From a virus, in IMG/VR virus record IMGVR_UViG_3300035436_000036: DNA of 64,000 bases, one strand, 5' to 3'. Shown here piece after piece: positions 27,940 through 43,091 of the stretch. The notes under the pieces were generated by a model that had not been told where the DNA came from, made no database searches, and saw nothing but the letters and a program-made list of their open reading frames with translations. The number at the start of each line of letters is the position of its first letter. Position 1 is the stretch's first letter. The position numbers and the translations under genes were made by a program.

Positions 27940-28016
27940 GCGCCGTTAGCTCATCTGGATAGAGCGCGAAACTTCTAATTTTGAGGCAGCAGGTTCGAGT
28001 CCTGCACGGCGCACCA
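27940..28016 (+). tRNA. tRNA-Arg (anticodon TCT)
   Basis: Cloverleaf folded by eye; T-loop TTCGAGT, CCA encoded. Confidence 0.7.
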
Positions 28017-28021
28017 TATAC

Positions 28022-28096
28022 ACTCCCGTAGCTCAACGGTAGAGCTGACCGCTCATAACGGTTAGGTTAGGGGTTCGAATCCCTTCGGGAGTACCA
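28022..28096 (+). tRNA. tRNA-Met/Ile2 (anticodon CAT)
   Basis: Cloverleaf, T-loop TTCGAAT, CCA encoded. Confidence 0.7.
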
Positions 28097-28097
28097 T

Positions 28098-28175
28098 GTC
28101 ACGGTGGCAGAGTGGTCCAATGCACAGGTCTGCAAAACCTGAAAGCCGCGGGTTCGAATCCCGCCCGTGACTCCA
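28098..28175 (+). tRNA. tRNA-Cys (anticodon GCA)
   Basis: Cloverleaf, T-loop TTCGAAT, CCA encoded. Confidence 0.6.
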
Positions 28176-32447: not shown

Positions 32448-32523
32448 GGACTCGTAGCTCAATTGGGAGAGCACCGCACTGTCACTGCGGAGGTAGTGGG
32501 ATCGAAACCCATCGAGTTCGCCA
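32448..32523 (+). tRNA. tRNA-Asp (GTC)
   Basis: Cloverleaf by eye. Confidence 0.7.
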
Positions 32524-32529
32524 GTTTGT

Positions 32530-32604
32530 GTCGGTGTGATGTTAATGGTAGCATGACGGTCTCCAAAACCGTTCGTCAAGGTTCGAATCCTTGCACCGAT
32601 GCCA
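32530..32604 (+). tRNA. tRNA-Trp (CCA)
   Basis: Cloverleaf by eye. Confidence 0.65.
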
Positions 32605-32629
32605 GACTTGTTCTTTCTCATTGTTGTTC

Positions 32630-32705
32630 GCGTCTGTAGCTCAGTTGGCAGAGCACTCCCCTGATAAGGGAGAGGTCGCAGGGTCAGGACCTGCCAGACG
32701 CACCA
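32630..32705 (+). tRNA. tRNA-Ile (GAT)
   Basis: Cloverleaf by eye; atypical T-loop GTCAGGA. Confidence 0.6.
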
Positions 32706-32761
32706 TTATGGGGTTGCTACCTAATAAGCACGCGAGGGGCCACGGTTAGCTCCTCAACATT

Positions 32762-32851
32762 GGAAGCGTGTCAGAGTGGTCGATTGATCTGGTCTTGAAA
32801 ACCAGCGTAGGCGCGAGTCTACCGTGGGTTCGAATCCCACCGCTTCCTCCA
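32762..32851 (+). tRNA. tRNA-Ser (TGA), type II
   Basis: Long variable arm, T-loop TTCGAAT. Confidence 0.7.
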
Positions 32852-32852
32852 T

Positions 32853-32927
32853 GCGGACGTAGCTCAGTGGTAGAGCTTCTCGTTGCCAACGAGAAGGTCG
32901 TGGGTTCGAATCCCATCGTCCGCTCCA
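32853..32927 (+). tRNA. tRNA-Gly (GCC)
   Basis: Cloverleaf by eye. Confidence 0.7.
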
Positions 32928-32929
32928 AT

Positions 32930-33004
32930 GGCCCGGTCGTCTAATGGCTAGGACACCGCTCTTTCACAGCGGAGAAGAGGGATCGAAACCCTTTCGGGCT
33001 ACCA
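32930..33004 (+). tRNA. tRNA-Glu (TTC)
   Basis: Cloverleaf by eye. Confidence 0.65.
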
Positions 33005-33010
33005 GATTTA

Positions 33011-33098
33011 GGAACGTGGGCAGGACGGTAATGCAACGCACTGCTAATGCGTACAACCTGTAATGGGTTGACAGGGTTCGACTCCCTGACGTTCCGCC
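33011..33098 (+). tRNA. tRNA-Ser (GCT), type II
   Basis: Long variable arm, T-loop TTCGACT. Confidence 0.7.
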
Positions 33099-33269
33099 AA
33101 GTTTATGGAGTCGTGAACACGGTAATGGTCGATCGCAGCGTACAGGGGTGTTCGGGGGCGATTGGCAACTCCGCCAAGATGAGGGAAACGCTAGGGCAAT
33201 GTCAGACGGTGCCTGCGTAGCGGGTGTCGTGAGGTGCTGGGTAACCGGCGGGGTCTGACACGAGTTTAT
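33099..33269 (+). ncRNA. Unassigned structured RNA segment inside tRNA operon (possible stable small RNA like T4 species 1/2 RNAs, or degenerate tRNAs)
   Basis: ~170 nt between tRNA-Ser and tRNA-His; GTCAGAC...GTCTGAC inverted repeat; both halves start with AGTTTATGG like tRNA leaders; no convincing cloverleaf. Confidence 0.3.
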
Positions 33270-33345
33270 GGTGGTCGAGGTGTTAATGGATACATGCTGG
33301 ATTGTGAATCCGGAGTTGCGGGCTCGATACCCGTCGATCACCCCA
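33270..33345 (+). tRNA. tRNA-His (GTG) with G-1
   Basis: Extra 5' G paired to discriminator C; T-loop CTCGATA. Confidence 0.65.
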
Positions 33346-33346
33346 T

Positions 33347-33422
33347 GGGGATATAGTCCAACGGCAGAGACAGGGCACTTAAAATGCCTCCAGCGTGAGT
33401 TCGAATCTCACTATCCCTACCA
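33347..33422 (+). tRNA. tRNA-like, anticodon TAA, with short (type I) variable arm
   Basis: Good acceptor/T arms (GTGAG TTCGAAT CTCAC), anticodon loop CTTAAAA; UAA normally belongs to type II tRNA-Leu. Confidence 0.5.
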
Positions 33423-33531
33423 GAATTTAGTAGACAGTGGGGCCTTCAGAAATGATTGCTACTAATAGCTCACCTTAATGGTCGGTACACCACGGTAAGG
33501 AGCAACCCACCAAACTTTTTTAAAATAACTG

Positions 33532-33570
33532 TTGCCTTTTTCGAAAATATGTCCTATAAGGATATATAAG
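33532..33570 (+). promoter_or_regulatory. Early promoter cassette copy (TTGCCT variant)
   Basis: ACTGTTGCCTTTTTCGAAAATATGTCCTATAAGGATATATAAG. Confidence 0.5.
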
Positions 33571-33591
33571 ATGAAGAAAAAGGAATTGGTT

Positions 33592-33795
33592 ATGGAAGTT
33601 TTTGTTTTGATGGGTGCGATGGATCACGATGCACATTACGTTCTTGGTGTTTATGCTTCTGAACAAGAAGCTGTAGATGCCTTGGGTGTTTACCTTCGTG
33701 ACCTTGATGAATCTTGGCATGATCGTTATTATGTTGATCGCCGTGTGCTCGGTGCACATGCGGAATACGATTCCGATCCTTTTCGACATCTGTAA
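33592..33795 (+). CDS. Hypothetical protein (67 aa) between tRNA clusters
   Basis: ATG after AAAAAGGAATTGGTT leader (same pattern as 30583 gene). Confidence 0.4.
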   Translation: MEVFVLMGAMDHDAHYVLGVYASEQEAVDALGVYLRDLDESWHDRYYVDRRVLGAHAEYDSDPFRHL

Positions 33796-33802
33796 GTTTA
33801 AT

Positions 33803-33878
33803 GGACGATTAGCTCAGTCGGTAGAGCGCGGGACTCTTAATCCTTAGGTCATAGGTTCGAATCCTATATCGTCTACCA
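33803..33878 (+). tRNA. tRNA-Lys (CTT)
   Basis: Cloverleaf by eye. Confidence 0.65.
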
Positions 33879-34093
33879 AGTTCTATGTTGGGTATCACAT
33901 AGGTGTGTCCTGAGGGAGTCATGACCCAAGGGAGAATGGAGAAAATCTCATATAGGATGCATAATGCATAACCATCTTATGATTATGAGAGGATGCGATA
34001 ATCCCCGCCCGACGCCAAATTATCCGTACCATTTTATAGGAGGTTGTATATGTCACTGCGGGAAGCAAGAAGCTAGGTAAAAATTTTAAAAAG

Positions 34094-34357
34094 ATGATTA
34101 CTCTGTATGAGTATTTCGGTAAAGAGTGTGGTGGTCTAGATTGGAGCGATAGTGCTCTCTATGATCTATACGTATTCGAGTCTACTGGTAAAGGTAGCAT
34201 AAAGCCGAATAACGGATATGCATATGGCAAACACACTATAGATATAACAATCTCTATGTGGAAAGAGGACTTAGATAAGACCCTCTGGCTACATGAATTA
34301 TATCAAGATCCTAACCTACCAGATTGGTGGTTGGATAAAGTTTTTAAGGGTCGGTAA
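34094..34357 (+). CDS. Hypothetical protein (87 aa)
   Basis: ORF between tRNAs; W-rich C-terminus. Confidence 0.4.
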   Translation: MITLYEYFGKECGGLDWSDSALYDLYVFESTGKGSIKPNNGYAYGKHTIDITISMWKEDLDKTLWLHELYQDPNLPDWWLDKVFKGR

Positions 34358-34432
34358 AGCCGGTGGCTCCGGCAGTCAGACTGTAAATCTGATCCGTTCG
34401 CGGGGGAGGATCGATACCTCACTGACCCACCA
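34348..34432 (+). tRNA. tRNA-Tyr (GTA), type II
   Basis: Anticodon stem TCAGA/TCTGA, loop CTGTAAA, long variable arm; 5' end overlaps stop of upstream ORF. Confidence 0.6.
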
Positions 34433-34440
34433 AGTTTTAA

Positions 34441-34516
34441 TGCCCTTTGGTGTAATTGGCAACACGTCTGATTTTGATTCAGAAGAGTCCAGGTTCGAGC
34501 CCTGGGAGGGCATCCA
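34441..34516 (+). tRNA. tRNA-Gln (TTG)
   Basis: Cloverleaf by eye. Confidence 0.7.
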
Positions 34517-34525
34517 AAAATAAAT

Positions 34526-34558
34526 GTTGACTTATATCTAAAAATGAGATATATAATA
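34526..34558 (+). promoter_or_regulatory. Promoter internal to tRNA cluster 3 (TTGACT ... TATATAAT)
   Basis: Upstream of tRNA-Pro. Confidence 0.5.
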
Positions 34559-34567
34559 TACTAGTAA

Positions 34568-34643
34568 CGGGAAGTAGCTCAGGTGGGAGAGCGCGTGGTT
34601 TGGGACCACGAGGTCGCAGGTTCGAGCCCTGTCTTCCCGACCA
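34568..34643 (+). tRNA. tRNA-Pro (TGG)
   Basis: Cloverleaf by eye. Confidence 0.7.
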
Positions 34644-34647
34644 TTTT

Positions 34648-34723
<76 letters not shown>

Positions 34724-34730
34724 GAATAAA

Positions 34731-34804
34731 GCGGGCTTGGCGTAGAGATAACGTACCTGGCTTCCACCCAGGGGTCAAGGGTTTGATTCCCTTAGTCCGC
34801 ACCA
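34731..34804 (+). tRNA. tRNA-Gly (TCC)
   Basis: Cloverleaf by eye. Confidence 0.7.
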
Positions 34805-34810
34805 GAATAC

Positions 34811-34885
34811 GGCACAGTAGCTCAGTGGTAGAGCGACGGTCTCATACGCCGTCAGCCGGTGGTTCGAATCCATCCTGTGTCACCA
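34811..34885 (+). tRNA. tRNA-Met/Ile2 (CAT), second copy
   Basis: Cloverleaf by eye. Confidence 0.7.
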
Positions 34886-35033
34886 TTTAGGAATGTGAAT
34901 ATGAGAAGCGAGTCTGCAGAATGTGTGATGTATGTACCCGACACTCCTTTAAACAGGGCTGCGTTTACAGACGAAACGGTTTTGGCAGAGATATATAAAG
35001 TTTCGAATATTAAAATTGTGTTTAAAGATAATG

Positions 35034-35108
35034 GGGGATTAGCTCAGTTGGGAGAGCGATTGCTTTGCAAGCAATAGGTCAACGGTTCGATCCCGTTATC
35101 CTCCACCA
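35034..35108 (+). tRNA. tRNA-Ala (TGC)
   Basis: Cloverleaf by eye; G3-U70 present (GGGGGAT...ATCCTCC). Confidence 0.7.
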
Positions 35109-35397
35109 AGTTTTGTAGCGCCTAAGGCATAGCCCGAAGGATAACCAAAGGTTCACCGTATTGGGGGCTCGCTACAAAAAAATATAGACCACCTCGGCTG
35201 AACCCGTGAAGTGATAAAGACATTGTTGCAACATTGTTTTTATCTGGGAAGATTGCAACGTCCGGAAGTAAGCAATCAAGGCACACTGTAGGTGGTCACT
35301 CACATTGACTCCGACCTCTGGTTTTAAGTCCCGACCTGAAATGACAGGCGGTAACATATGTGTCCTAGGAAACGCATTTGTTTGGGAGTTTTTATTT

Positions 35398-35473
35398 GCC
35401 TTTGTAGCTCAGTTGGTAGAGCAGTGGATTGAAGATCCACGTGTCGGGGGTTCGACTCCCTCCAAAGGCACCA
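35398..35473 (+). tRNA. tRNA-Phe (GAA)
   Basis: Cloverleaf by eye. Confidence 0.7.
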
Positions 35474-35592
35474 CAAGTTTGGGACTAAGCGGTGTGAATA
35501 GGGAACCCGCTGAATATGGACTGCTAGTAAAACTGTTAAAACTCACCTATGAGAAGCAAGGCATAAGATCCCAAAACATTATGCTCCAATGG

Positions 35593-35675
35593 TGGAATGG
35601 TAGACACGCTAGTCTTAGGAACTAGTGCCTAGTGCGTGGGGGTTCGAGTCCCTCTTGGAGTACCAAGTTTAATGC
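35593..35675 (+). tRNA. tRNA-Leu (TAG), type II
   Basis: Long variable arm, discriminator A. Confidence 0.7.
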
Positions 35676-35683
35676 CGGATTAG

Positions 35684-35758
35684 CTCAGTGGTAGAGCGCC
35701 TCGTTTACACCGAGGATGTCGGGAGTTCGACCCTCTCATCCGGTACCACGCCCTCGTA
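35684..35758 (+). tRNA. tRNA-Val (TAC)
   Basis: Cloverleaf by eye. Confidence 0.7.
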
Positions 35759-35759
35759 G

Positions 35760-35836
35760 CTCAACTGGATAGAGCTCTTGATTACGAATCAAAAGGTTGC
35801 AGGCTCGAATCCTGCCGAGGGCACCAATTAACTGTT
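35760..35836 (+). tRNA. tRNA-Arg (ACG)
   Basis: Cloverleaf by eye. Confidence 0.65.
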
Positions 35837-35844
35837 GACATTAA

Positions 35845-35873
35845 CAGCTATAAGTACTATAAAGAATTATGAA
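35845..35873 (+). promoter_or_regulatory. Promoter (TTGACA N17 TATAAA) upstream of tRNA-Asn
   Basis: sigma70-like spacing. Confidence 0.5.
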
Positions 35874-35879
35874 GTTTAT

Positions 35880-35954
35880 TCCCCAGTAGCTCAGTGGTAG
35901 AGCAGGTGACTGTTAATCACCTGGCCGGTGGTTCGAACCCATCCTGGGGAGCCA
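35880..35954 (+). tRNA. tRNA-Asn (GTT)
   Basis: Cloverleaf by eye. Confidence 0.7.
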
Positions 35955-36381
35955 ATTTCAGTTAAGCAGTACCGTCTGCTGAACCAACGTATATACCCTA
36001 ACAGATTATACGTTGTAAACAAAACGGATGAAGGAAGTTCCTGTGGCGACCAAGCGATTGGGGGAAGATAGGAACGTAAAGAGCGAAATTACCGACTGTA
36101 GCGAGTCGACACCTCAGTAGCCTTCTTATTACTAACACCGCCGCCCGTATGGTGTATAACAATCCCGGGCCTAGTTTCGATATCGGCCTCGACGGAGGCT
36201 GTAAGAAGTGTGACTGAATAATCCCCTTGTCAGTGGGGATAAAGTAGACTCGGGGATTGGTCTCCCGCTCAACCGGCAAACGAGTCGTAGGCTGAGATTA
36301 CAGACTGTAATTGACTGGGCCTTGGAGGTATAACTGAATCCTCCCACTTCGCTTTTATAGATATTATGTTAGGAGATTATT
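35955..36381 (+). ncRNA. ~425-nt non-coding, comparatively GC-rich region downstream of tRNA array (candidate structured RNA)
   Basis: No credible ORF on either strand (only a 93-aa antisense ORF of poor composition); multiple local inverted repeats (e.g. CAGTGGGGATAAAG...GGGATTGGTCTCCC, CACCGCCGCCCGTATGGTG). Confidence 0.25.
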
Positions 36382-36972
36382 ATGGTAGAAACTGTTTCAA
36401 TTAAACGTCATTGGGATAAGTACGATGACAATACTCACGAACTGCCTGAGGTTGTTCCTAGTGTAGTATTCAAGACTCGTGTCCGCGATGACTCAATCGA
36501 AGGCCCCAATCCTTACCGCTGGGAAGACAAGACTAGCTTTGACTACTTCGGTGGCAAGCGTGTCATCCTCTTCTCACTCCCTGGCGCATTCACCCCCACA
36601 TGTTCCACATACCAGCTTCCGGATTTCGAGAATAGCTACGAAGCATTCAAGAGCTTTGGTATCGATGAGATCTATTGTGTCTCTGTCAACGATGCCTTTG
36701 TGATGAACTGCTGGGCTCAACAGCAAGGTGTAGAGAACGTCAAGATGATTCCAGATGGTTCTGGCAAATTCACTCGCAAGATGCAGATGAATGTCTACAA
36801 AGACAACCTTGGGTTCGGTGAGCGCTCATGGCGTTATGCATGCCTTATCGAGAATGGTAAGATCCTCAAGTGGTTCATTGAACCAGGTATGGAAGACAAT
36901 TGCGAAGAGGATCCATACGGCCGTACGGATCCAGCAAAGATCCTCGAGTATGTCGAGGCGTTCTATGGCTGA
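36382..36972 (+). CDS. Peroxiredoxin (Prx5-like, 1-Cys/atypical 2-Cys)
   Basis: PGAFTPTCS peroxidatic-Cys motif. Confidence 0.85.
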   Translation: MVETVSIKRHWDKYDDNTHELPEVVPSVVFKTRVRDDSIEGPNPYRWEDKTSFDYFGGKRVILFSLPGAFTPTCSTYQLPDFENSYEAFKSFGIDEIYCVSVNDAFVMNCWAQQQGVENVKMIPDGSGKFTRKMQMNVYKDNLGFGERSWRYACLIENGKILKWFIEPGMEDNCEEDPYGRTDPAKILEYVEAFYG

Positions 36973-37346: not shown

Positions 37347-37458
37347 TCTGCTATCATACAATGTTCCCAGTAGCAACATTACTGTAACATATGGGCCTAC
37401 AACGAGTAGGCAAGGGTATACGATCCCAACTGACTTCAGTTTCGATCAGTATTAATTA

Positions 37459-37490
37459 GAGGGGGTGGCTTCGGTCACCCCCTTTTTTTA
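37459..37490 (+). terminator. Rho-independent terminator
   Basis: GGGGGTGGCTTCGGTCACCCCC + TTTTTTT. Confidence 0.8.
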
Positions 37491-37496
37491 TAAATA
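37489..37496 (+). promoter_or_regulatory. T4-type late promoter TATAAATA driving the 37.5-43.1 kb module
   Basis: Exact TATAAATA 6 nt upstream of ATG 37502, immediately after terminator. Confidence 0.5.
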
Positions 37497-38126: not shown

Positions 38127-38564
38127 ATGAGAAAGAGTCTGCTCCTGCTACTCCTAGTAAGCAGCCCGCTCCAAGCAAGTGAGATAGTATTTGGATTTAA
38201 GAACCCTTCGTTCTCTGGCAACAATGCCGGAGCGCAATGGCTGACTATTGAGAATCAAGAGACTACTCGTAAAAAGGCTATAGCGGATAAGATCGAGGCC
38301 GAACTCAAGGCTCAGGCTCTTGAAGAGAAGAACTCGATCCTCAATCGCTTTATGAACAACCTACAGTCTCGTATCTACTCGCAGCTTGCTCAACAGCTGA
38401 CAAACAATCTGTTTGGTGAGATGGGTGGCGAAGAGGGTGAGTTCGGTCTTGAAGGCAACTCTATCAAGTACAAGAAGACTGACACAGAGATCACACTATC
38501 AATTACTGATGCGGCTGGTAACACTACCGAGATTATAATTCCGACGAGTGGCTTCAAATGGTAA
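38127..38564 (+). CDS. csgF: CsgF-like curli assembly protein
   Basis: Signal peptide then FGFKNPSFSGNNAGAQWL (E. coli CsgF FQFRNPNFGGNPNNGAFLL) and ITLSITDAAGNTTEIII (LQLNVTDRKTGQTSTIQV). Confidence 0.75.
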   Translation: MRKSLLLLLLVSSPLQASEIVFGFKNPSFSGNNAGAQWLTIENQETTRKKAIADKIEAELKAQALEEKNSILNRFMNNLQSRIYSQLAQQLTNNLFGEMGGEEGEFGLEGNSIKYKKTDTEITLSITDAAGNTTEIIIPTSGFKW

Positions 38565-39349
38565 GGAATTGGTTTCTCTTACTAATACCGCTGTTGCTGG
38601 GCGGGTGCATGTCAATGGGTTCTGGTGTGCTTGACATGCAGGATCGACCTGAACTTAGCCGCACACTGACAAAGGAATTGTATACTCTGAGCCCACCTAA
38701 GCAACAGGCTGTAGTTGCGGTGTATGACTTTCCGGACCTTACAGGTCAAAGAAGAGATAAGGATGGCATTGCCAGCATCTCGACTGCAGTGACTCAGGGT
38801 GGCACAGCGCTTCTAATCTCTGCACTGACAGATGCAGGTGGTGGTTCGTGGTTCAGAGTTGTTGAACGCAATCGCGTTGACGATCTTGCAAAGGAACGTC
38901 AGATTGTTAGACAGACTCGTGAAGAGTATATTGGAGAAGGAGCAAATAAGCTAGAGCCAATGCTCTTTGCTGGTTTGATTATCCAGGGTGGAATCATTGG
39001 CTATGATAGCAACATCCAGACTGGCGGGGCAGGCGCAAGGTATCTGGGCATTGGTGGAACAACAGTGTATCGTAAGGACCAAGTGGTAATTGCGTTGCGT
39101 GGTGTCAATACAAACACAGGGGAAGTGATCCTCAACGTACAGGTTTCCAAGACCGTGCTTTCGGTTGGCAGAGACCTTTCGGTTTTTAAGTTTGTTGATG
39201 TAGGAACAAAGCTGGTAGAAGCGGAAGCCGGCATGACTGAGAATGAAGCTAACACAATGGCAGTTAAGATGGCCATAGAGGAAGCAGTATTACAGTTAAT
39301 CAAACAAGGTATCGATAAGGGATACTTTAGCTATAGGGAAGAAGGATGA
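38558..39349 (+). CDS. csgG: CsgG-like curli secretion channel lipoprotein
   Basis: Lipobox LLGGC; AVVAVYDFPDLTGQ; IIGYDSNIQTGGAGARYLGIGGTTVYRKDQVVIALRGVNTNTGEVIL strongly similar to E. coli CsgG IIGYESNVKSGGVGARYFGIGADTQYQLDQIAVNLRVVNVSTGEIL. Confidence 0.9.
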   Translation: MVRNWFLLLIPLLLGGCMSMGSGVLDMQDRPELSRTLTKELYTLSPPKQQAVVAVYDFPDLTGQRRDKDGIASISTAVTQGGTALLISALTDAGGGSWFRVVERNRVDDLAKERQIVRQTREEYIGEGANKLEPMLFAGLIIQGGIIGYDSNIQTGGAGARYLGIGGTTVYRKDQVVIALRGVNTNTGEVILNVQVSKTVLSVGRDLSVFKFVDVGTKLVEAEAGMTENEANTMAVKMAIEEAVLQLIKQGIDKGYFSYREEG

Positions 39350-40044
39350 TGAAAAAGGCACTAGCACTTTTCATTATGTCTCTGATGACGAGTTCGTTAG
39401 CTTATGCACAGTCGACGACTAACTCGATTTTTATCGACCAAGTTGGTAACGGTAGTACAATTACAGTTACCCAGAAGGGTCAGAACAATAGAATTGGTTC
39501 TGAACAAAACCGTGTTGTGATTGAAGGCAACAACCAGACAATCACTTCTACGCAAGAAGGTAATAATAACCTTATTCAGGGTTCTATTACACAGGGCGAT
39601 AACGTCAGCATCGATTCGACCGTGACAGGTGACAACAATACAGTTACCTATGACATGGGTGATGCAGCAAGCGTTGCAGGTTCAACTAAGACACTCGCGG
39701 TGACAGGCGATTCGAACAACCTGACATTCAACCAGGGCACAGCAGCTTCGGCTACAGGGGCTACACAGAACATCACGTTCACCGGTGATACCAATACCTA
39801 TACCTCGACAATCAATACGGATGACGTAGTCAATGATATGACTATTGCTGGTGATGGTAACACGATCACAATGGTGCAAGATGGCACAGCTGGTAAGAAT
39901 GTTGAAATGGTGCTTACAGGCAGCACAAACAATGTTACTGTAAATCAAAAGAGCACAAACAATGTTGATACGATCAAGATCAATAGCACAAGCACTGGTA
40001 GCACTCTTGTTATTAATCAGTGCAACGCCGGCGGCCCTTGCTAA
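39346..40044 (+). CDS. Secreted curlin-repeat (CsgA/CsgB-like) protein candidate
   Basis: Signal peptide; ~20-residue imperfect repeats with Q-x-G-x-N-N / N-x-[VI]-T-x-x-Q cores, Gln/Asn/Thr/Gly-rich; encoded directly after csgF-csgG. Confidence 0.5.
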   Translation: MMKKALALFIMSLMTSSLAYAQSTTNSIFIDQVGNGSTITVTQKGQNNRIGSEQNRVVIEGNNQTITSTQEGNNNLIQGSITQGDNVSIDSTVTGDNNTVTYDMGDAASVAGSTKTLAVTGDSNNLTFNQGTAASATGATQNITFTGDTNTYTSTINTDDVVNDMTIAGDGNTITMVQDGTAGKNVEMVLTGSTNNVTVNQKSTNNVDTIKINSTSTGSTLVINQCNAGGPC

Positions 40045-41053
40045 TATTGGCAACGTAACGCAGGCGCGTGGTAATAGCGAAGTCGTGAAGAAAGCCACTA
40101 AGGTTCCTACACGACTTCAGCTACCTATTGCTAAGTTAGATAGAGTACAGACTGGAAACGGTAGAGTCGAGATCAAGTTTATCGACGACTCTACCGTCAG
40201 GGTAACAGAACATTCGAAGCTCGTGATCGACGACTTCGTCTATAGTGGTAAGCCATCCACTTCAAGAATGGCTCTCAAGTTTGCCTCTGGCACTGCTAGA
40301 TTCGCTACCGGTCAGTCTGGTAAGATGAACAAAAGCAACATCAATCTCAGAACACCCACTGCTACAATTGGTGTTCGTGGAACAGACTTCGCAGCAACCG
40401 TAGACGACTTTGGCAAAAGCCTTATCATTCTCCTACCCGAGCCAGATGGATCCGTGGGAGAAATCACTGTGTCTAATGCTGCGGGGTTCGTTATTCTCAC
40501 GAAAGCCTTCCAGGCCACCATCGTGTCGACAGCAGATAGTAGACCATCTCGTCCCGTGATCCTCAACCTGACACTGGATCAGATTGATAACATGCTGATT
40601 GTATCCCCAGCAGAAGAGGTTGATATGGGCGAAGATGCTGGCGAGACAAGATCAAATATCTTGGACTTATCAGAGCTCGATGTAGACTTCCTGGCTAAAG
40701 ATGATCTGAAAGAAGATCAGCTGGCGAGTTCGGATCTAGACATCAATGCAATCGATACCAACTTCCTTGGAGAAGACTTTCTCGATGATAGTCTTGCTGG
40801 AGGTGATTGTATCACACGTGAAGGTACGAAGCTATGCGGCACAATATTCGGTCTTGATAGCGTAACACAAATCACAACGATTCTATCTGGAGATTCAATC
40901 CGTCTCGTAAGAACTCTCGGCACTACTGTAGATGTCAGGTTCAAGAAGGACGAAAACAAAACTTTATACATAGATAGTAGTGGCAAGTCATTTTTGATCG
41001 AAATAAACGATCCAGCTGGGGGTACAATAATCAATGTCAAACAAAGTGACTAA
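39962..41053 (+). CDS. Secreted FecR-domain protein with acidic C-terminal region
   Basis: Clear signal peptide ALVALLLLISATPAALA; FecR-type core (TVRVTEHSKLVID ... TPTATIGVRGTDF); start overlaps previous gene by 83 nt. Confidence 0.6.
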   Translation: MLIRSRSIAQALVALLLLISATPAALANIGNVTQARGNSEVVKKATKVPTRLQLPIAKLDRVQTGNGRVEIKFIDDSTVRVTEHSKLVIDDFVYSGKPSTSRMALKFASGTARFATGQSGKMNKSNINLRTPTATIGVRGTDFAATVDDFGKSLIILLPEPDGSVGEITVSNAAGFVILTKAFQATIVSTADSRPSRPVILNLTLDQIDNMLIVSPAEEVDMGEDAGETRSNILDLSELDVDFLAKDDLKEDQLASSDLDINAIDTNFLGEDFLDDSLAGGDCITREGTKLCGTIFGLDSVTQITTILSGDSIRLVRTLGTTVDVRFKKDENKTLYIDSSGKSFLIEINDPAGGTIINVKQSD

Positions 41054-43091
41054 GGTCTTATTGTCCCCATGGCTGGCTCTCCTGACATTTGCTTTGCTAT
41101 TCGCAGTCAAGGTTCAGGATCCGTTCCTAGTAGAATCTGCTAGGCTTAAGTTCTATGATTACATTATGATCGACAAACCAGTCGAATCAAAAGACATAGT
41201 CGTTGTAAACATAGGGGAGAAAGCAATTGAAAAATATGGCCAGTGGCCTTTCCCGAGGGAAGTACATGCTAAGATTATTAGCGACCTTTATAGGGCAAAC
41301 GCTGGTCTCGTTGGTAGCACTATACTTATGCCTGAGCCTGATCGTATGGGGACTGATAGAGTTCTTGTCGATGTCCTGAAACAGGCTCCGGTTGTTCTCA
41401 GTCAGACTGTGAGCGACTCTTGTTCACGGGCAGGTGCGACAATTCGGAAGACAGGCGTTGCCGTAATCGGCGATGGAGAACCAACTGAATTTCTTCCTCA
41501 ATATCCGTGCGTTCTAAGTAATATCGCACCTCTTCAAGAAGCCGCAGCCGGTGTTGGGATAACATCAACCCTACCTGAGGCTGATGGGGTCGTGAGGCGA
41601 GTTCCTCTTCTAGCTCAATCTGAAAACGAATACTACCCCGCATTTGCTCTAGAGCTTCTACGTGTAGCTGCTGGAGATCCTTCGTATCAAGCGAAGATAA
41701 ATCAGACTGGTGTTGAAGCATTACGGATTCCTCAATTCGATACTATTAAGACGGATGAATATGGTCGCATATTTATTAACCCAAATTATAAGTTCAAAGA
41801 GATTGAACTGGGTGTTCCTACAACTGTAGACTTGAATCAAAAGATTGTAGTTTTAGGTGTAACTGCTGCCGGCATTCAGAATCCACTAGCAACTCCTCAA
41901 GGAGCTCAGTATCCTCAGAATGTACAAGCAAGCATCCTTCAGACACTACTAGACGGTGACTCTGTATCGATTCCACTTTGGGCTTCTTCTTTGGATTTGG
42001 CACTGCTATTATTCCTTACTATTGGTATCGTTGTCCTATCAAAGGTGAGATACTCTGTTGTATGGATCATGATATTGATCGGTGGGTATGTTTACCTACC
42101 TGTCTATTTATTCGCCAGTCAAAAGCTGCTACTTGACATTTCTTTCAATGTCTTCGCTGTTCTTATAATTTACCTACACATCTATACAGTAAAGTTCATC
42201 TCTGAATTCCTACAGAAGCAGCAGATCAAGAAGCAGTTCGGAACGTATCTCTCACCTGACCTGGTCGCAAAGCTCCAACGCAATCCTGAGCTTCTGGCTC
42301 TCGGTGGCGAAGAGCAAGAGCTGTCAATCATGTTCACAGACGTTCGTGGATTCACAACGATCTCAGAGCACTATGGTAAGGACGTTCAAGGTCTGACAAA
42401 GATCATGAACCGCTACATGACGGCTATGACAAAGGCGATCCTCGAGAACAACGGAACGCTGGACAAGTACATTGGTGACGCTCAGATGGCATTCTGGAAC
42501 GCACCTGTCGCAAACGAAAAACATGCTCTGGATGCTGTAAGAACATCCTTTGAGATGATGAAAGCCCTGGAGACATTTAATGCAGAAATTAAAGAAGAAG
42601 GCGTTCCAGCTTTCGGTATGGGTCTTGGTATTAACACTGCCACTGTGGTGGTTGGCAATATGGGTAGCGATCAGCGCTTTGATTATACTTGCCTGGGTGA
42701 CGGGGTTAATCTGGCTGCTCGTCTCGAAGGTCAGTCCAAGCCTTATGGCGTCAAACTCGTCCTCGGGTCTCGCACAGCGGACCTGGTTAGGGATGTATAC
42801 CAAGTAGTCGAGCTTGATCTAATAGCTGTTAAAGGTAAGACCGAACCGGCACGCATCTATACCGTGGTGGAGAACTTCGACACATACTCGCAGGTGATGC
42901 ATGATACGTTCCTGGATCTGTATCGCAAGGGCGATTGGGCCAGAGCGATAAAGCAGGCTCAAGAACGCAAGGCACAGGCCTGGGGCGGTGAGCTTGAGGC
43001 ATACTATGATATGATGATCGAGCGCAGCGCAGATATGAAGGCTGCTGGTGTAAAGAATTTTGATGGAATCTACAGAGCGACTTCCAAATAA
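41034..43091 (+). CDS. CHASE2-sensor class III adenylate/guanylate cyclase
   Basis: N-terminal TM + periplasmic CHASE2 region (DIVVVNIGEKAIEKYGQWPFPREVHAKII), three TM helices, cyclase domain with FTDVRGFTTISE ... KYIGDAQMAFWNAP ... GDGVNLAARLE. Confidence 0.85.
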   Translation: MSNKVTKVLLSPWLALLTFALLFAVKVQDPFLVESARLKFYDYIMIDKPVESKDIVVVNIGEKAIEKYGQWPFPREVHAKIISDLYRANAGLVGSTILMPEPDRMGTDRVLVDVLKQAPVVLSQTVSDSCSRAGATIRKTGVAVIGDGEPTEFLPQYPCVLSNIAPLQEAAAGVGITSTLPEADGVVRRVPLLAQSENEYYPAFALELLRVAAGDPSYQAKINQTGVEALRIPQFDTIKTDEYGRIFINPNYKFKEIELGVPTTVDLNQKIVVLGVTAAGIQNPLATPQGAQYPQNVQASILQTLLDGDSVSIPLWASSLDLALLLFLTIGIVVLSKVRYSVVWIMILIGGYVYLPVYLFASQKLLLDISFNVFAVLIIYLHIYTVKFISEFLQKQQIKKQFGTYLSPDLVAKLQRNPELLALGGEEQELSIMFTDVRGFTTISEHYGKDVQGLTKIMNRYMTAMTKAILENNGTLDKYIGDAQMAFWNAPVANEKHALDAVRTSFEMMKALETFNAEIKEEGVPAFGMGLGINTATVVVGNMGSDQRFDYTCLGDGVNLAARLEGQSKPYGVKLVLGSRTADLVRDVYQVVELDLIAVKGKTEPARIYTVVENFDTYSQVMHDTFLDLYRKGDWARAIKQAQERKAQAWGGELEAYYDMMIERSADMKAAGVKNFDGIYRATSK

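Follow-up and report, generated by a model that had tools for sequence, protein, structure and literature searches.

The DNA stretch analysed here (64,000 nt; IMG/VR record IMGVR_UViG_3300035436_000036; referred to as the window) belongs to a T4-like myophage and encodes a tail sheath, a portal, a major head protein, a DNA polymerase and a helicase. On the + strand it carries a curli module in the order CsgF-CsgG-curlin-FecR-CHASE2 cyclase, which is syntenic with the modules of Methylophilales phage Melnitz and Pelagibacter phage HTVC008M. The CsgF-like gene (38127–38564; Pfam PF10614, E 5.6e-23, 82 bits) overlaps the gene for a CsgG-like outer-membrane channel (38558–39349; PF03783, E 8.4e-49, 166 bits) by 7 nt, both scoring above the Pfam gathering score, and the CsgG-like gene overlaps the curlin-repeat (CsgA/B-like) gene (39346–40044) by 4 nt (ATGA). 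This is followed by a FecR-domain gene (39962–41053; 363 aa; PF04773, E 7.3e-12) and by a CHASE2 adenylate/guanylate cyclase gene (41034–43091; PF05226, E 9.8e-40; PF00211, E 2.4e-18), the latter two sharing 20 nt (41034–41053). Upstream of the module, a strong terminator-like hairpin (37458–37485, + strand) precedes the T4-type late-promoter motif TATAAATA (37489–37496, + strand). Judged from these motifs, the region 37458–37496 is likely the start of the transcription unit holding the curli module. The motif TATAAATA was observed nine times in the window compared to 1.27 occurrences expected. This points to the use of T4-type late promoters in this phage and to late transcription of the curli module.

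The surroundings of the module show further features. The tRNA genes, 24 in number and thus a large set for a phage, form two clusters (27940–28175 and 32448–35954, + strand), and a manA RNA motif (36185–36354, + strand; Rfam RF01745, 64.8 bits at a gathering score of 55.2) is located 3′ of the tRNA array and directly 5′ of a peroxiredoxin ORF (36382–36972; PHROG 2281). The GC content of the window is 45.9%, compared to 36.9% for the Melnitz locus, and the host may be other than SAR11 or OM43.

The subject of this analysis is the junction between the curlin-repeat and the FecR-domain ORFs, which have 83 nt in common (39962–40044, + strand), the FecR frame being +1 relative to the curlin frame (window frames 2 and 1, respectively). 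The initial annotation had described an out-of-frame overlap at this position, and its coordinates proved exact when both ORFs were re-checked. From this stretch the curlin gene takes its last 27 sense codons and the stop codon, and the FecR gene takes a 27-codon signal peptide and the first mature codon. The FecR-frame translation across the overlap reads MLIRSRSIAQALVALLLLISATPAALA up to the predicted cleavage site and continues with NIGNVTQ. An in-frame TAA (39941–39943, + strand) six codons 5′ of the FecR ATG rules out a FecR start farther upstream. The openness of the FecR frame over 27 codons, taken alone, is weak evidence for coding: the frame contains 13 stops in the 205 codons 5′ of the overlap and the chance of 27 open codons is about 0.17. 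When 15-residue windows of the FecR frame are ranked by hydrophobicity over the whole curlin gene, the top eight all fall within the overlap. A scan for promoters and terminators detected no promoter-like or terminator-like site within the overlap.

The curlin-repeat gene encodes a protein of 232 aa ending at TAA 40042–40044. The protein has a separate signal peptide (MMKKALALFIMSLMTSSLAYA), and its C-terminal tail is QCNAGGPC. Its score against the Pfam family Curlin_rpt is slightly below the gathering score (20.1 versus 20.7 bits), and by tblastn it shares 38% identity with homologues in Melnitz and HTVC008M that are annotated as curlin repeat proteins. As the initial annotation had stated, the curlin frame keeps its repeat up to the stop at 40044, with NVTVNQ, VDTIKIN and TLVINQ followed by CNAGGPC and the stop codon. 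In an alignment with the homologues of Melnitz and HTVC008M, the last unit matches their C-terminal units, G218, I223 and Q225 being invariant. An AlphaFold model computed from the single sequence has low confidence (pLDDT 62); it shows an all-beta fold whose strands reach residue 226, and it weakly indicates that the overlap-encoded strands 210–214 and 220–226 belong to the fold. Cysteine-containing tails were also found in the other clades with the deepest overlaps (besides QCNAGGPC: QCGPSGNC, QCNTIGGC, QCASGC and C..QSDGGTSTSC) and are absent from the Melnitz-type and HTVC008M-type curlin proteins. These tails (40021–40044 in the window) may close a cap by a disulfide bond, or FecR-frame alanine codons may have produced them as a by-product.

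The sequence encoded in the FecR frame by nucleotides 39962–40042 has the properties of a Sec-type cleavable signal peptide. It is composed of the Arg-rich n-region MLIRSRS, the h-region IAQALVALLLLIS with a mean Kyte-Doolittle value of 2.56 and the c-region ATPAALA. Applying as rules a positively charged n-region, an h-region of at least seven residues and small residues at positions −3 and −1, cleavage by signal peptidase I is predicted to release a mature protein starting with NIGNVTQ. The signal peptide proposed in the initial annotation is supported by its n/h/c pattern and the −3/−1 rule. Moreover, a signal peptide is located 5′ of a conserved [IV]G.[IV] motif in all FecR homologues compared.

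Searches at the nucleotide level yielded little, as the 5-kb operon had no blastn match among 50,697 phage records and megablast of 20 kb returned tRNA fragments only. By protein-level search, Melnitz and HTVC008M were identified as relatives with the same module. A scan of IMG/VR resulted in 80 loci, 13 of which, originating from 11 datasets, have a FecR protein with 73–92% identity to that of the window. All 13 share the same ATG and the same position of the curlin stop and hence the same 83-nt overlap. Furthermore, all of them have an in-frame stop 0–6 codons 5′ of the FecR ATG, and their curlin tails read NQCNAGGPC or a near variant. In bacterial genomes, the full order CsgF-CsgG-curlin-FecR-cyclase was found only in eight phage-like contigs binned into MAGs (L087–L094), which are assigned to Caulobacteraceae, Flavobacteriaceae, Luteolibacter and Rhodobacteraceae and are probably mis-binned phage contigs. 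True bacterial loci contain FecR and a neighbouring CHASE2 cyclase with CsgFG and curlin not adjacent, so that the overlap is not traceable to a bacterial donor.

The initial annotation had regarded both frames as genuine and had proposed to compare them across homologous phages. This comparison bears out the claim, as both frames are kept in all 14 members of the clade, i.e., the window and the 13 close contigs, and codon-position diversity reveals constraint on both. In the nucleotide alignment of these 14 sequences, diversity at the third codon position of the curlin frame is 0.295 in the overlap versus 0.541 outside, where the minimum of 158 sliding windows of the size of the overlap is 0.476. 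For the FecR frame the respective values are 0.153 and 0.535, with a minimum of 0.401 among 312 such windows outside. Upon resampling, none of 20000 draws was as low as the overlap. At first and second positions, the curlin frame has diversities of 0.147 and 0.098 in the overlap compared to 0.185 and 0.142 in the rest of the gene; this similarity points to normal purifying selection on the curlin frame in the overlap, where the curlin residues are near-invariant across the 14 sequences. Wobble diversity of both genes is likewise lowered in a second clade, whose overlap measures 44 nt (0.254 versus 0.582 and 0.296 versus 0.572). On the FecR side, the ATG and the alanine at −1 are present in 14 of 14 sequences, position −3 is Ala or Val, and codons 4 and 6 encode Arg, Lys, His or Gln. 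In the hydrophobic core, position 2 of the FecR codons is T or C in all 14 sequences, save for one Leu/Trp site, and the core varies by Val/Ala, Ile/Thr and Leu/Ser swaps. Judged from these alignments, both frames were shown to be open, conserved and under constraint. As a separate observation, the least diverse 81-nt stretch of the clade alignment corresponds to window positions 40966–41050; there the C-terminus of FecR is encoded and the cyclase gene starts, and this stretch may be a second small dual-coding signal.

The overlap extends beyond the immediate clade. For each locus, the junction was described by the [IV]G.[IV] motif, by the FecR start judged most plausible and by the position at which the long ORF upstream stops, the choice of the start being heuristic in distant loci. 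Among 66 distinct junctions, 57 overlap, by 19–125 nt (at least 40 nt in 49 and at least 80 nt in 18), and this count is still 57 if, of the starts that leave 15 residues or more, the one farthest downstream is taken. The +1 frame relation is found in all overlapping junctions but one. The upstream stop never lies beyond the first mature FecR codon, and the distance from its end to the [IV]G.[IV] motif is 1 nt in 18 junctions, 4 nt in five, 10 nt in six and 13 nt in 15. Eight of the nine non-overlapping junctions fall into one group centred on HTVC008M, as defined by a quick neighbour-joining tree, and the ninth is a single other locus (L073); the HTVC008M-centred group also contains Melnitz-type overlaps of 23–38 nt. 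The curlin and FecR genes overlap by 23 nt in the annotation of Melnitz and are separated by 2 nt in HTVC008M, and in HTVC008M-type loci the gap between the two genes reaches 86 nt or they lie in the other frame. Since these relatives work without it, the overlap is not needed for function.

Taken together, the comparative sequence data make it probable that two genes of the phage curli (T8SS) module, each translated separately, share a genuine same-strand overlap that has been maintained in evolution. Ribosomes on the curlin-repeat gene would read through to TAA 40042–40044, and other ribosomes would begin at ATG 39962 inside the curlin ORF and synthesize the FecR-domain protein. The DNA of the last two curlin strand units would thus carry, in its +1 frame, the whole Sec-type signal peptide of FecR. 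The overlap would have originated by overprinting on a permissive region, and the loose sequence requirements of a signal peptide allow it to persist.

From the genetic code we infer why the overlap lies at this place. Position 2 of the FecR codons is the wobble site of the curlin codons. Hence curlin codons ending with a pyrimidine (Asn, Thr, Ser, Ile, Val, Gly, Cys) are read as Leu, Ile, Val, Ala, Thr or Ser in the FecR frame, and the share of pyrimidines at curlin wobble sites is 82% in the overlap versus 62% elsewhere. A stop in the curlin frame requires a FecR codon NNT followed by AA., AG. or GA., i.e., by a codon for Lys, Asn, Ser, Arg, Asp or Glu. As these residues are absent from the signal-peptide core, no curlin-frame stop arises inside the core, and an upstream ORF entering the signal-peptide region runs on to the polar cleavage region. 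In the window, the curlin Cys codon and stop (TGC TAA) read GCT-AAT in the FecR frame, encoding Ala(−1)-Asn(+1), and the first Cys of CNAGGPC overlaps a FecR-frame Ala codon seven residues before the cleavage site.

At a distance of 8 nt, the FecR ATG is preceded by a weak Shine-Dalgarno-like sequence, AAGAG (39949–39953, + strand), which is part of an A-rich region predicted to be unpaired. Its duplex energy of −2.1 kcal/mol is comparable to those of csgF and csgG, weak sequences of this kind occur equally in several other genes of the phage including these two, and in four of the 14 clade members it reads CAGAG. Folding around the FecR start (minimum free energy fold of 39917–40072; RNAalifold with 13 sequences) resulted in z = −0.67 and no compensatory pairs, giving no evidence for an RNA structure that gates the FecR start or stimulates a frameshift. 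Initiation at 39962 would accordingly occur independently on the polycistronic late mRNA, at a weak Shine-Dalgarno sequence in an A-rich and unstructured region, and its rate is probably below that of curlin translation, as elongating curlin ribosomes would cover the FecR start.

The strongest competitor of separate initiation is termination-reinitiation coupling, by which ribosomes terminating at 40044 would back up 83 nt and restart at 39962, so that the output of FecR would depend on that of curlin. The weak Shine-Dalgarno sequence at the FecR start speaks for it, as does the observation that every junction of the operon overlaps (7, 4, 83 and 20 nt), suggesting a tightly coupled polycistronic unit. 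The efficiency of reinitiation drops steeply with distance and the usual range is a few bases. The other three junctions do fit the close start-stop spacing of coupled genes. However, the FecR start lies 83 nt 5′ of the curlin stop, and up to 125 nt in relatives, far above this range, and in an A-rich, unpaired start region de novo initiation needs no help. Strict coupling over 83 nt is unlikely.

Somewhat less probable still is a mispredicted FecR start, with the true start being located downstream at TTG 40007 or GTG 40086 and the overlap thereby reduced to 38 nt or abolished. In cellular genomes, annotated co-directional overlaps of more than 60 bp mostly represent 5′ over-extensions of the downstream gene (PMC2478687), and the Shine-Dalgarno sequence before ATG 39962 is weak. 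However, all 14 sequences keep the ATG, and three of them have TGG in place of the TTG at codon 16, which argues against the conserved downstream start that the initial annotation had named as an alternative. Initiation at TTG 40007 would moreover leave a 12-residue peptide without a charged n-region, and initiation at GTG 40086 would delete the signal peptide found in every homologue. Finally, both the reduced diversity at curlin wobble sites and the restriction to pyrimidines run through all 27 codons.

It is very doubtful that the overlap is more than tolerated compaction, either by allowing a low-rate fusion by +1 slippage or as a selected device that fixes a low FecR-to-curlin ratio. A low-rate fusion is thinkable because the curlin stop coincides with the FecR signal-peptidase site in several clades. 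If this were true, slippage at the Cys-stop would yield a fusion of curlin and mature FecR exported by the curlin signal peptide, and through such a fusion the FecR/CHASE2-cyclase sensor could be anchored on the secreted fibre. In the case of a device, ribosome traffic on the curlin gene would set the FecR-to-curlin ratio.

A programmed +1 frameshift at the curlin stop, generating a curlin-FecR fusion joined exactly at the mature FecR N-terminus (TGC-T-AAT ATT GGC), is highly improbable. The geometry is seamless in 18 junction types, in which the curlin stop straddles the last signal-peptide and the first mature codon, and the +1 relation in all overlapping junctions save one would suit such an event. 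However, a shifty codon is not conserved, the last sense codon being TGC, CAA, AAC, CAC, CAT, GAT, GAC or GAA, and the stop codon varies across the family (TAA, TAG, TGA). A stop codon followed by T is an efficient termination context, and T is nearly always found 3′ of the stop. The survey of stop contexts across the family detected neither a frameshift motif nor a slippery site, and neither a Shine-Dalgarno-like stimulator nor a conserved RNA structure was found. Furthermore, HTVC008M-type genes, up to 86 nt apart or in another frame, do not fit, and the stop position is more simply explained by a signal-peptide core free of curlin-frame stops. The programmed event considered in the initial annotation is thereby not borne out. 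Its second option, a sequencing or assembly indel falsely shifting one frame, is a generic possibility for a single metagenomic contig with nothing specific found in its favour, and it is excluded by the same frames and boundaries, including the 83-nt overlap, in 13 other contigs from 11 datasets at 73–92% protein identity, by the overlap in 57 of 66 junction types and by the annotated 23-nt overlap at the same junction in the cultured phage Melnitz. The curlin/FecR junction is an ordinary, though unusually long, gene overlap and neither an error nor programmed recoding.

Gene overlaps and hydrophobic proteins encoded in alternative frames are well known in phages, as for phiX174 E within D and MS2 L across coat/replicase, which are overprinted hydrophobic proteins of small phages. 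The genuine overlap proposed here shares with them a hydrophobic membrane-targeting sequence in the alternative frame of another gene. However, E and L are whole small proteins embedded in this way, whereas here only the cleavable signal peptide of the 363-aa FecR protein is overprinted. With +1 frameshifting of the prfB type, the junction has in common the +1 relation and a stop codon at the would-be shift point. In contrast to prfB, it has neither a conserved slippery codon nor a Shine-Dalgarno stimulator, its termination context is strong, and both a conserved ATG and a signal peptide belong to the downstream FecR ORF itself. In a study of 338 prokaryotic genomes, no real co-directional overlap above 60 bp was found and the longest was 56 bp (Palleja et al., 2008; PMC2478687), in line with the statement of the initial annotation that such long overlaps are uncommon. 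An overlap reported there is likewise a conserved same-strand C-terminus/N-terminus overlap supported by both proteins in relatives, but it comprises 32–56 bp in cellular genomes, compared to 83 bp, and up to 125 bp in relatives, over a signal peptide in phages.

The T8SS (curli) module of pelagiphages was described as CsgF-CsgG-CsgA/B-FecR-(CsgA/B)-adenylate cyclase (Zaragoza-Solas, 2020, PMC7029224; Buchholz, 2022, PMC9004378; Wittmers, 2022, PMC9599517), and its gene order and Pfam families are the same as in the window. A FecR-domain gene and an adenylate cyclase gene 3′ of the fibre gene, as reported in one of these papers (PMC9599517), are present in the window (PF04773, PF05226, PF00211), and so are the CsgG and CsgF homologues. 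The best phage matches, Melnitz and HTVC008M, show 37–47% identity for FecR and 38% for curlin. They contain a second curlin-repeat gene between FecR and the cyclase, which is missing in the clade of the window (the region concerned in relatives is 5031–6047 in L001 and 5031–6356 in L002). The GC content of the window phage, 45.9%, is above the filter of 30–35% used for pelagimyophages in PMC7029224. With respect to the overlap, the window belongs to the deepest class with 83 nt, compared to an annotated 23 nt in Melnitz and none in HTVC008M. The searched passages of PMC7029224, PMC9004378 and PMC9599517 contain no mention of the curlin/FecR overlap.

As a summary, the curli operon is already published and the mechanism is not new; in this respect the overlap is a detail of genome compaction, which leaves the known function of the module unchanged. 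Beyond this, it represents a well-supported long co-directional dual-coding overlap of 83 nt, and of up to about 125 nt in relatives, in a size class that the survey of 338 cellular genomes took entirely as annotation errors above 60 bp (PMC2478687). As a rule, it is suggested that regions coding for signal peptides are permissive sites for such overlaps, because the need for a pyrimidine at codon position 2 matches the wobble position of the upstream frame and because the core holds no stop of the upstream frame. An annotation pipeline in which long overlaps are trimmed would place the FecR start wrongly and lose the signal peptide, and the phage curli module affected by such trimming is widespread and marine.
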